DNA of 25,490 bases. Source: a virus. Numbering within the stretch: the stretch's first letter is position 1; each line of letters starts with the position of its first letter. The stretch lies in UHGV virus genome UHGV-1755679; one strand, given 5' to 3'. The notes under the pieces are model-generated. The model did not search any database. It was not told where the DNA came from and saw only the letters and a program-made list of their open reading frames with translations. Shown in pieces: positions 10,409 through 10,616 of the stretch. Position numbers and translations under genes: made by a program.

Positions 10409-10414
10409 TGAAAC

Positions 10415-10449
10415 CTCGTAGAATCTGGTGTGTTAACCGATTCTACGAG
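10415..10449 (-). promoter_or_regulatory. 11-bp perfect inverted repeat (CTCGTAGAATC ... GATTCTACGAG, 13-nt spacer) in the leader of pmgC; candidate late-promoter/operator or RBS-occluding hairpin
   Basis: Read directly from the sequence; one arm overlaps the pmgC Shine-Dalgarno region. Confidence 0.3.
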
Positions 10450-10561
10450 TAGTCATTTGTTCATTGAGTAGGAATATTGTTGTCTGGGGGGTAATCAGTG
10501 TAGGTGGAATGAGGGATATGATATGGTTATCACATAATCAGGTTGTTTTGAGTAAAACAAT

Positions 10562-10590
10562 AAAACGCCCTTTAATGGGCGTTTTTTTAA
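10562..10590. terminator. Bidirectional intrinsic terminator downstream of the sim operon
   Basis: Stem AACGCCC / GGGCGTT with 6-nt loop, flanked by T-runs on both strands (gggcgttttttt on plus; gggcgttttattgtttt on minus). Confidence 0.6.
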
Positions 10591-10616
10591 ACTTAAATTG
10601 ACTATCCTTTCAAATA

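Follow-up and report, generated by a model that had tools for sequence, protein, structure and literature searches.

Introduction

In phage T4, the late promoters of gene e, soc, gene 49, I-TevI, I-TevII, I-TevIII and segB, and likewise that of Aeh1 mobE, overlap or adjoin the 5' strand of a stem in which the ribosome-binding site (RBS) is sequestered (PMC3014915, PMC2988022). The longer transcripts that arrive from upstream promoters are poorly translated, the effect being about 100-fold for gene e, whereas the late transcripts are translated (PMC3014915, PMC2988022). Here we analyse a perfect 11-bp inverted repeat located in front of pmgC, the first gene of a leftward late tail operon in the virus genome UHGV-1755679 (25,490 nt; this whole stretch is called the window). 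One arm of the repeat carries part of the late promoter LPsit and the other overlaps the Shine-Dalgarno (SD) sequence of pmgC. We propose, with a probability of roughly 0.65, that this repeat serves as a translational gate embedded in the promoter, of the T4 gene e/I-TevI type, which would insulate the tail operon from readthrough.

A related principle is said to protect two transposons. In the fold-back inhibition of IS10 and IS50 ('protection from outside transcription'; Davis, Simons and Kleckner, 1985), the extra upstream segment of RNA entering from outside reportedly pairs with the transposase RBS, and the RNA made from the element's own promoter starts downstream of this segment and is translated. 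The logic at LPsit would be the same, the difference being that IS10 and IS50 are transposons and have no activator-dependent promoter. As in the T4 hairpins, the SD sequence lies in the stem, the promoter is in the 5' strand and the predicted late RNA lacks that strand. The promoters themselves differ: T4 uses gp55/gp33 and TATAAATA, whereas the P1 promoter combines a sigma-70 -10 hexamer with a -22 box bound by Lpa. P1 is, moreover, a temperate plasmid prophage, in which the unwanted RNA would probably come from accessory and immunity genes expressed by the prophage and not from early or middle promoters. There is no sequence homology between the P1 LPsit hairpin and the T4 hairpins, and the P1 case is known from its sequence alone.

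The repeat joins the late promoter LPsit to the Shine-Dalgarno sequence of pmgC

By its sequence, the window belongs to a P1-like phage or plasmid prophage; positions 10000-11000 are 97.9% identical to positions 46168-47169 of P1 (AF234172). The pmgC gene (9842-10408, minus strand) encodes a virion protein of 188 aa and heads the late operon pmgC-tub-pmgB-sit-pmgA-bplA-16. PmgC is essential and is a putative tail adaptor or head-tail joining protein (PMC9024508). On the plus strand, the repeat consists of CTCGTAGAATC (10415-10425) and GATTCTACGAG (10439-10449), which are 100% complementary and 13 nt apart. In 300 dinucleotide-preserving shuffles, a 25.5-kb window had on average 0.16 perfect inverted repeats this long or longer (at least 11 bp, loops of 3-30 nt), which corresponds to about 0.001 for the 208-bp intergenic region. 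A 61-nt RNA around the repeat folds at -21.2 kcal/mol, compared with -7.7 ± 2.6 kcal/mol in shuffled sequences (z = -5.3; none of 200 was as good), and the hairpin alone is predicted at -18.1 kcal/mol. It is clear that the repeat is not a chance feature.

Read on the minus strand, the order of the elements is AAC AAATGACTA CTCG TAGAAT C GGTTAACACACCA GATTCTACGAG G TTTCA ATG, with the ATG of pmgC at 10408-10406. The upstream (5') arm of the hairpin, CTCGTAGAATC (10439-10449), is made up of the promoter spacer CTCG, the LPsit -10 hexamer TAGAAT (10440-10445; P1 annotation 46608-46613) and one further base. The LPsit -22 box AAATGACTA, the Lpa-binding element of P1 late promoters, occupies 10450-10458 (P1 annotation 46618-46626). 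Downstream of the arm comes the loop GGTTAACACACCA (10426-10438), in which GGT and ACC lengthen the stem, with one bulged A, to 11+3 bp. The downstream (3') arm GATTCTACGAG (10415-10425) is contained in all transcripts, and its last three bases are the GAG of the SD sequence, which we read as GAGG (10414-10417), 5 nt 5' of the ATG.

P1 late promoters are defined by their place in front of a late gene, a -22 box of 9 bp similar to AAGTGACTT and a TANNNT -10 hexamer that follows after a spacer of 4 nt. LPsit has all of these, and its -22 box and -10 are identical to those of the annotated LP26. The pattern AARTKACT-N5-TANNNT, which we built from the annotated P1 late promoters, was found four times in the window, with 0.03 matches expected. 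Three of the matches, all on the minus strand, are LPs (2180-2198), LPsit (AAATGACTA-CTCG-TAGAAT, 10440-10458) and LP23 (21523-21541); the fourth is unannotated and is described at the end. LPsit is the sole late-promoter motif in the region between pmgC and simC. The P1 late promoters (LPs, LPdar, LP26, LP23 and others), which depend on Lpa (gp10) and host SspA, are defined without any hairpin that reaches from the -10 to the SD, and the hairpin at LPsit is unannotated in the P1 record. In Rfam 15, no family covers 10415-10449, the sole matches being sub-threshold and situated on the simC terminator (10496-10624).

Going by sigma-70 geometry and the annotation, late transcription should start at A10434 or A10433, in the loop and 6-8 nt past the -10. 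Since the -10 lies in the upstream arm and the start 6-8 nt downstream of it, the LPsit transcript would be made without the upstream arm. We found no transcript mapping for LPsit, pmgC or P1 starts and no mention of the hairpin in the accessible literature, which does not include the primary P1 papers (e.g. PMC523184).

The first-pass annotation of this sequence had reported a perfect repeat at this place, able to form a stable hairpin, with the SD in one arm and with pmgC as the first gene of the operon, all of which was confirmed; the -10 of LPsit in the other arm had gone unnoticed. Its suggestion that the repeat could bind a late-gene activator is not supported, as the site of Lpa in P1 late promoters is the -22 box (PMC10695390), which is adjacent to the repeat (10458-10450) and not the repeat itself. 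An antisense promoter from the plus-strand TAGAAT (10419-10424) was considered as well and was rejected: no acceptable -35 or late box is present upstream of it on the plus strand, and a promoter scanner makes no call there.

Both arms are conserved

Instances of the leader were collected by a PmgC protein search and by scans anchored on the -22 box and the pmgC start, with the hairpin left free. This gave 217 instances in 13 haplotypes, with some contigs fetched twice. Nine of the 43 free positions were variable among them: both free positions of the -22 box, five of 13 in the loop, two of six in the spacer between SD and ATG, and none of the 22 in the two arms. The hypergeometric p value for the invariance of the arms is 5e-4, or 0.0056 when the -10 hexamer and the GAG are left out and 13 arm positions are counted. 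This pattern speaks for purifying selection on the arms.

The leader is also present in Cronobacter phage JK004 and in Salmonella plasmids, whose PmgC is about 75% identical to that of the window. It reads A(C/T)ATGACAA CTCG TAAAAT CGG (C/T)TGAAGAT CCG ATTTTACGAG GTTGGC ATG. In this clade, the -10 has changed from G to A and the partner arm from C to T, i.e. TAGAAT/ATTCTA has become TAAAAT/ATTTTA and a G-C pair has been replaced by an A-U pair. The loop is unrelated and shorter, and the stem consists of 13 perfect pairs. In an alignment of 15 haplotypes, all 11 core pairs are formed in every sequence, and one of them is compensatory.

The repeat might have no selected function, either as a by-product of the constraints on promoter and SD or as a scar or recombination site at the junction with an accessory module. 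P1-like homology does break about 10 bp upstream of the repeat, and nine of the 22 arm positions are already constrained by the -10 and the SD. However, the 13 arm positions outside these two elements are invariant too, with the p value of 0.0056 given above, and the compensatory change in JK004, together with the extension of its stem towards the loop, argues for selection on pairing. As for a recombination site, a recombinase would cut in the spacer, whereas the breakpoints are found 5' of the -22 box, and a spacer of 13 nt is too long for the core of a tyrosine recombinase. An origin of the repeat without selection therefore appears quite improbable.

Predicted translation of readthrough and late RNA

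The arm bases adjoining the SD, CGAG (10418-10415), have a predicted pairing probability above 0.98 in every RNA starting upstream of 10449. We calculated the cost of opening the region from -12 to +3, which was 15.3 kcal/mol in the readthrough RNA and 6.8 kcal/mol in the late RNA starting 6-8 nt past the -10, a difference of 8.5 kcal/mol. The null distribution for this difference, obtained from 93 other P1 genes with six pseudo-leader lengths each, has a mean of 0.8 and a 99th percentile of 7.6 kcal/mol, and the value of pmgC is matched by 0.36% of it. In JK004, the opening costs are 18.0 kcal/mol for the readthrough RNA and 5.7 kcal/mol for the late RNA; the difference of 12.4 kcal/mol was reached by none of the 690 values of JK004's own null (115 genes). 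The locus thus combines, as in T4, a stable stem-loop holding the GAG of the SD with a promoter placed so that the predicted late RNA loses the 5' strand.

From the repeat, the positions of the promoter elements, the predicted energetics, the conservation, the single compensatory change and the upstream contexts described below, we infer a start site in the loop, the existence of readthrough RNA and an effect on translation, as follows. RNA entering from upstream genes, sim in the window and other accessory genes in its relatives, would carry both arms; it would fold into a hairpin of about -18 kcal/mol, the SD would be hidden and pmgC would not be translated. The untranslated leader RNA would probably also be open to Rho-dependent polarity. 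Late in infection, Lpa would activate LPsit and RNA polymerase would start in the loop, giving an mRNA without the 5' arm. Its SD would be much easier to reach, allowing translation of the tail operon.

The whole hairpin had originally been placed in the leader of the late mRNA, where it would throttle or conditionally gate the translation of the late operon itself. The structure is indeed stable and masks the SD, and the start of LPsit is placed by prediction only. However, between simC and pmgC there is a single late-promoter motif, and its -10 falls within the 5' arm, so that any start 6-8 nt downstream excludes this arm from the late RNA. An opening cost of 15 kcal/mol would leave the essential structural gene that heads a major late operon almost untranslatable. 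The first-pass annotation had itself named a transcript start downstream of the repeat as speaking against its proposal, and the predicted start in the loop comes close to that. We consider a complete hairpin in the late leader very improbable. The idea of an RNA structure gating translation survives in that the structure does mask the SD; the block is predicted for the non-late readthrough RNA and not for the late RNA.

A partial direct copy of the 5' arm is found in codons 6-9 of pmgC (10383-10392, minus strand; TACTCGAAGA compared with TACTCGTAGA), and weak pairing of this copy with the 3' arm is predicted in the late mRNA (minimum free energy -7.4 kcal/mol). Codons ~10-13 of JK004 pmgC likewise hold a partial copy of the 5' arm, CGTAAAA. 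The internal copy may be a coincidence or a mild second layer of control.

Upstream contexts and origin of the arrangement

Homology among the P1-like genomes begins at the promoter, and most phage records match our query only up to about window position 10460. The sequence 5' of ACAAATGAC occurs in at least seven unrelated contexts, i.e. the site is a cargo hotspot. In the commonest context (A), a co-directional open reading frame (ORF) of 158 aa has its stop 8 nt before the -22 box, and in the P7-type context (B) a gene for a DUF5384 membrane protein stops 30 nt before it; in both there is no terminator on that strand. In JK004, a unit of genes 14-13, with a strong terminator ahead of it (after bplB), runs into the promoter with no terminator in between. 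We claim terminator-free contexts for these three only. In context D, a co-directional ORF ends about 103 nt before the box and a weak terminator-like site is present (record L029, 1330-1345), and in the sim context of the window and in context G the co-directional upstream gene is followed by a clear terminator. The first gene of the JK004 unit, gene_14 (start ~13167), itself shows upstream-dependent sequestration of its RBS, of 8.5-9.3 kcal/mol at all pseudo-leader lengths.

In the window, the co-directional gene upstream of pmgC is simC (10617-11429, minus strand), a possible source of readthrough. Behind it lies an intrinsic terminator (10562-10585, minus strand), consisting of AAAACGCCC-ATTAAA-GGGCGTTTT and a T-rich tail, which is the first barrier against readthrough in the window's own context. 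A predicted sigma-70 promoter, P1pmgC, is listed in the P1 record for the stretch separating simC from its terminator (window ~10586-10614, minus strand). Judging by position, a transcript from this promoter, which is predicted only, would start in the 5' arm of the terminator, escape termination and enter the hairpin and pmgC.

The contexts raise another possibility, in which the hairpin acts mainly for the upstream genes: situated at the 3' end of the accessory transcripts, it would terminate them weakly, pause the polymerase or block exonucleases, and so end or stabilise these transcripts. The upstream ORFs of contexts A, B and JK004 lack a terminator of their own and end within 8-60 nt of the hairpin, whose stem, at -18 to -25 kcal/mol, would be stable enough to halt 3' exonucleases. 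However, no U-tract follows the stem and its 3' flank is not conserved (GTTTCA in P1, GTTGGC in JK004); in addition, such a role leaves unexplained that the 3' arm always overlaps the SD and that the 5' arm always holds or abuts the -10. We regard it as unlikely that this is the main function of the hairpin. A role at the 3' end would be compatible with the translational gate and may be a by-product of it. The hairpin was also examined as an intrinsic terminator and rejected: it was not called by the scanner, and the tail following it, GTTTCAAT in P1 and GTTGGCAT in JK004, has no U-tract.

An uninterrupted gene order 22-21-pmgG-bplB-pmgC-tub was found in D6 (record L230, 1-3775) and in the Serratia, Pantoea and Erwinia relatives (records L089-L091). 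In these genomes, pmgC comes straight after bplB in a single operon, and we saw neither a late-promoter motif nor an SD-masking repeat at pmgC. In P1, P7 and JK004, bplB/pmgF and pmgC are separated by immunity, sim or accessory genes, an order that looks derived. In the simplest history, immunity and accessory DNA would have entered a continuous ancestral tail operon, whose downstream half would have gained a late promoter of its own. The hairpin embedded in this promoter would then prevent translation of that half, and probably also, through Rho, its transcription over any distance, when upstream genes are expressed.

Comparison with other late promoters

Among the 11 late promoters of P1, a strong hairpin from the -10 to the SD is found only at LPsit. 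A general rule for all P1 late promoters was considered and rejected: short promoter-SD repeats are present at LP23 (7 bp), LPpac (7 bp) and LPdar (6 bp), but their opening differences are only 1.2-4.1 kcal/mol and the duplex test described below gave p = 0.33. In the leader of LP23, CTCTTCC (21522-21516), which comes right after the -10 TAAAAT, is complementary to GGAAGAG (21482-21476) at the SD of gene 23. The opening difference of this leader, 1.2 kcal/mol, is not significant; the par operon lies co-directionally upstream, and the JK004 counterpart of the repeat has diverged yet is still complementary (TCGTCCT/AGGACAA).

Support for a recurrence of the design comes from the JK004/Salmonella clade only. 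The LPs/R leader of JK004 (record L229/JK004, ~3727-3790) contains a 14-bp perfect repeat, CCATAAAATCAGAC/GTCTGATTTTATGG, with the -10 in its 5' arm and the GG of the SD sequence GGAG in its 3' arm; this hairpin is absent from P1's LPs. Salmonella LPs (NZ_CP077703, ~70590-70644) keeps the hairpin, and here the -10 TAGAAT pairs with ATTTTA through a G.U wobble. As such a wobble is tolerated by RNA and not by duplex DNA, it favours an RNA hairpin. At gene 26 of JK004, the order is TACAAT-TCCCGC...GCGGGA-tcact-ATG, and the opening difference is 9.7 kcal/mol (0.3% of the null). Similarly, the spacer of the pacA promoter pairs with the SD region as CTTTCGT/ACGAAAG in P1, CTTGC(G)/(T)GCAAG in JK004 and CTTGCG/CGCAAG in Salmonella, with a compensatory change from T-A to G-C. 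These pacA loci are at 90475-90529 of the P1 record (LPpac), at ~52627 in JK004 and at ~19495 in the Salmonella plasmid NZ_CP077703; the early gene lpa is co-directional upstream of pacA, and readthrough from it would otherwise yield premature packase. The arm sequences at P1 LPsit and at JK004 LPsit, LPs, LP26 and LPpac are unrelated between promoters and clades.

Concerning two further points of the first-pass annotation, its statement that gene 23 has no similar repeat upstream is right for this sequence, the analogous 7-bp repeat at LP23 being not significant alone. A return of the same repeat at other P1-like late promoters was borne out for the geometry only, which recurs with unrelated sequence in the JK004/Salmonella clade; half-sites do not exceed chance in the window.

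The last result bears on the possibility of a palindromic operator, on which a dimeric protein (a repressor of phage or host origin, or else a second late regulator) would occupy two 11-bp half-sites spanning the -10 and +1 of LPsit. Such a site is suggested by the extent of the repeat, from the -10 to about +20, which is a typical position for a repressor, and by the invariance of the arms next to a variable loop; the symmetric double change in JK004 would also be expected of a symmetric protein site. However, with up to two mismatches allowed, the window has only five half-site matches, the repeat's own two arms included, where 5.9 are expected. The P1 record shows no protein-binding site here, though all C1, LexA, IHF, ParB and RepA sites are marked in it. 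The half-sites are 24 bp apart from centre to centre, which is off-phase for a dimer, and 23 bp apart in JK004, where the spacer is unrelated. Moreover, the common geometry of unrelated sequences at the JK004/Salmonella late promoters, with one G.U wobble, fits pairing of RNA better than a DNA-binding protein common to them. Overall, an operator seems improbable to us.

Tentatively, and at clearly less than even odds, we suggest that P1-like phages have repeatedly and independently built the -10/start region of late promoters into an anti-SD hairpin, so that late protein would be made only from Lpa-initiated RNA. The copy at LPsit would have arisen when immunity and accessory DNA split the bplB-pmgC operon, which is still continuous in D6, and would since have moved with the tail module as a portable insulator, irrespective of the cargo upstream.

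Weight of the evidence for a translational gate

Several observations weigh against a gate at LPsit. The start in the loop is a prediction from sigma-70 geometry and the annotation, our search having turned up neither transcript starts nor expression data for LPsit. The covariation of the stem is thin, though real, as it represents a single evolutionary event, and a symmetric protein site would give the same pattern. Even in the late mRNA, the prediction leaves some structure, with about 6.5-6.8 kcal/mol still to be overcome owing to weak pairing with codons 6-10 of the coding region. In the window, a good terminator stands between simC and the promoter, and readthrough may be slight there. 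In the comparison of the 11 P1 late promoters, matched promoter-SD pairs had no advantage in duplex energy over mismatched pairs (permutation p = 0.33; 0.09 for the best four), and the opening differences of the other ten late leaders, at most 4.1 kcal/mol, are unremarkable against the genome null. Finally, the RNA reading through JK004 LPs would itself be late, and the stem there includes only the GG of the SD, so that insulation during lysogeny can hardly be the whole rationale of the design. The selective rationale may be broader, for instance that each late cistron depends on its own promoter.

P1 is a workhorse among phages, and plasmid prophages of its kind are common across the Enterobacteriaceae, with hundreds of plasmid records; they often carry resistance or accessory cargo in the variable slot upstream of LPsit. 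If the gate operates as proposed, it would explain why the prophage does not express an essential tail operon into which terminator-less cargo is transcribed, and it would add a post-transcriptional layer to P1 late control, which has so far been described as purely Lpa/SspA-dependent initiation. It would also extend the T4 mechanism to a temperate, sigma-70-dependent system. For P1 engineering, CRISPR interference and reporter constructs, pmgC driven from an upstream promoter would then be poorly translated unless the 5' arm is removed.

Other repeats and promoter matches in the window

The unannotated match to the late-promoter pattern, AAGTTACTCAATTTACTCT (21461-21479, plus strand), overlaps the region of the TTG start of gene 23 and faces LP23 and parS. 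The palindromic -22 box could have produced this match by chance; alternatively, the match may represent a divergent or antisense late promoter, as in the LP26/LPpmgL pair. Additionally, the window has four more perfect inverted repeats, each with arms of 11 bp or longer and a short loop, at 13573-13598, 13952-13977, 21606-21634 and 24972-24998, the expected total being 0.16. The repeat at 21606-21634 (core GTGAAATCGCCACGATTTCAC) lies in the parS region, upstream of LP23.

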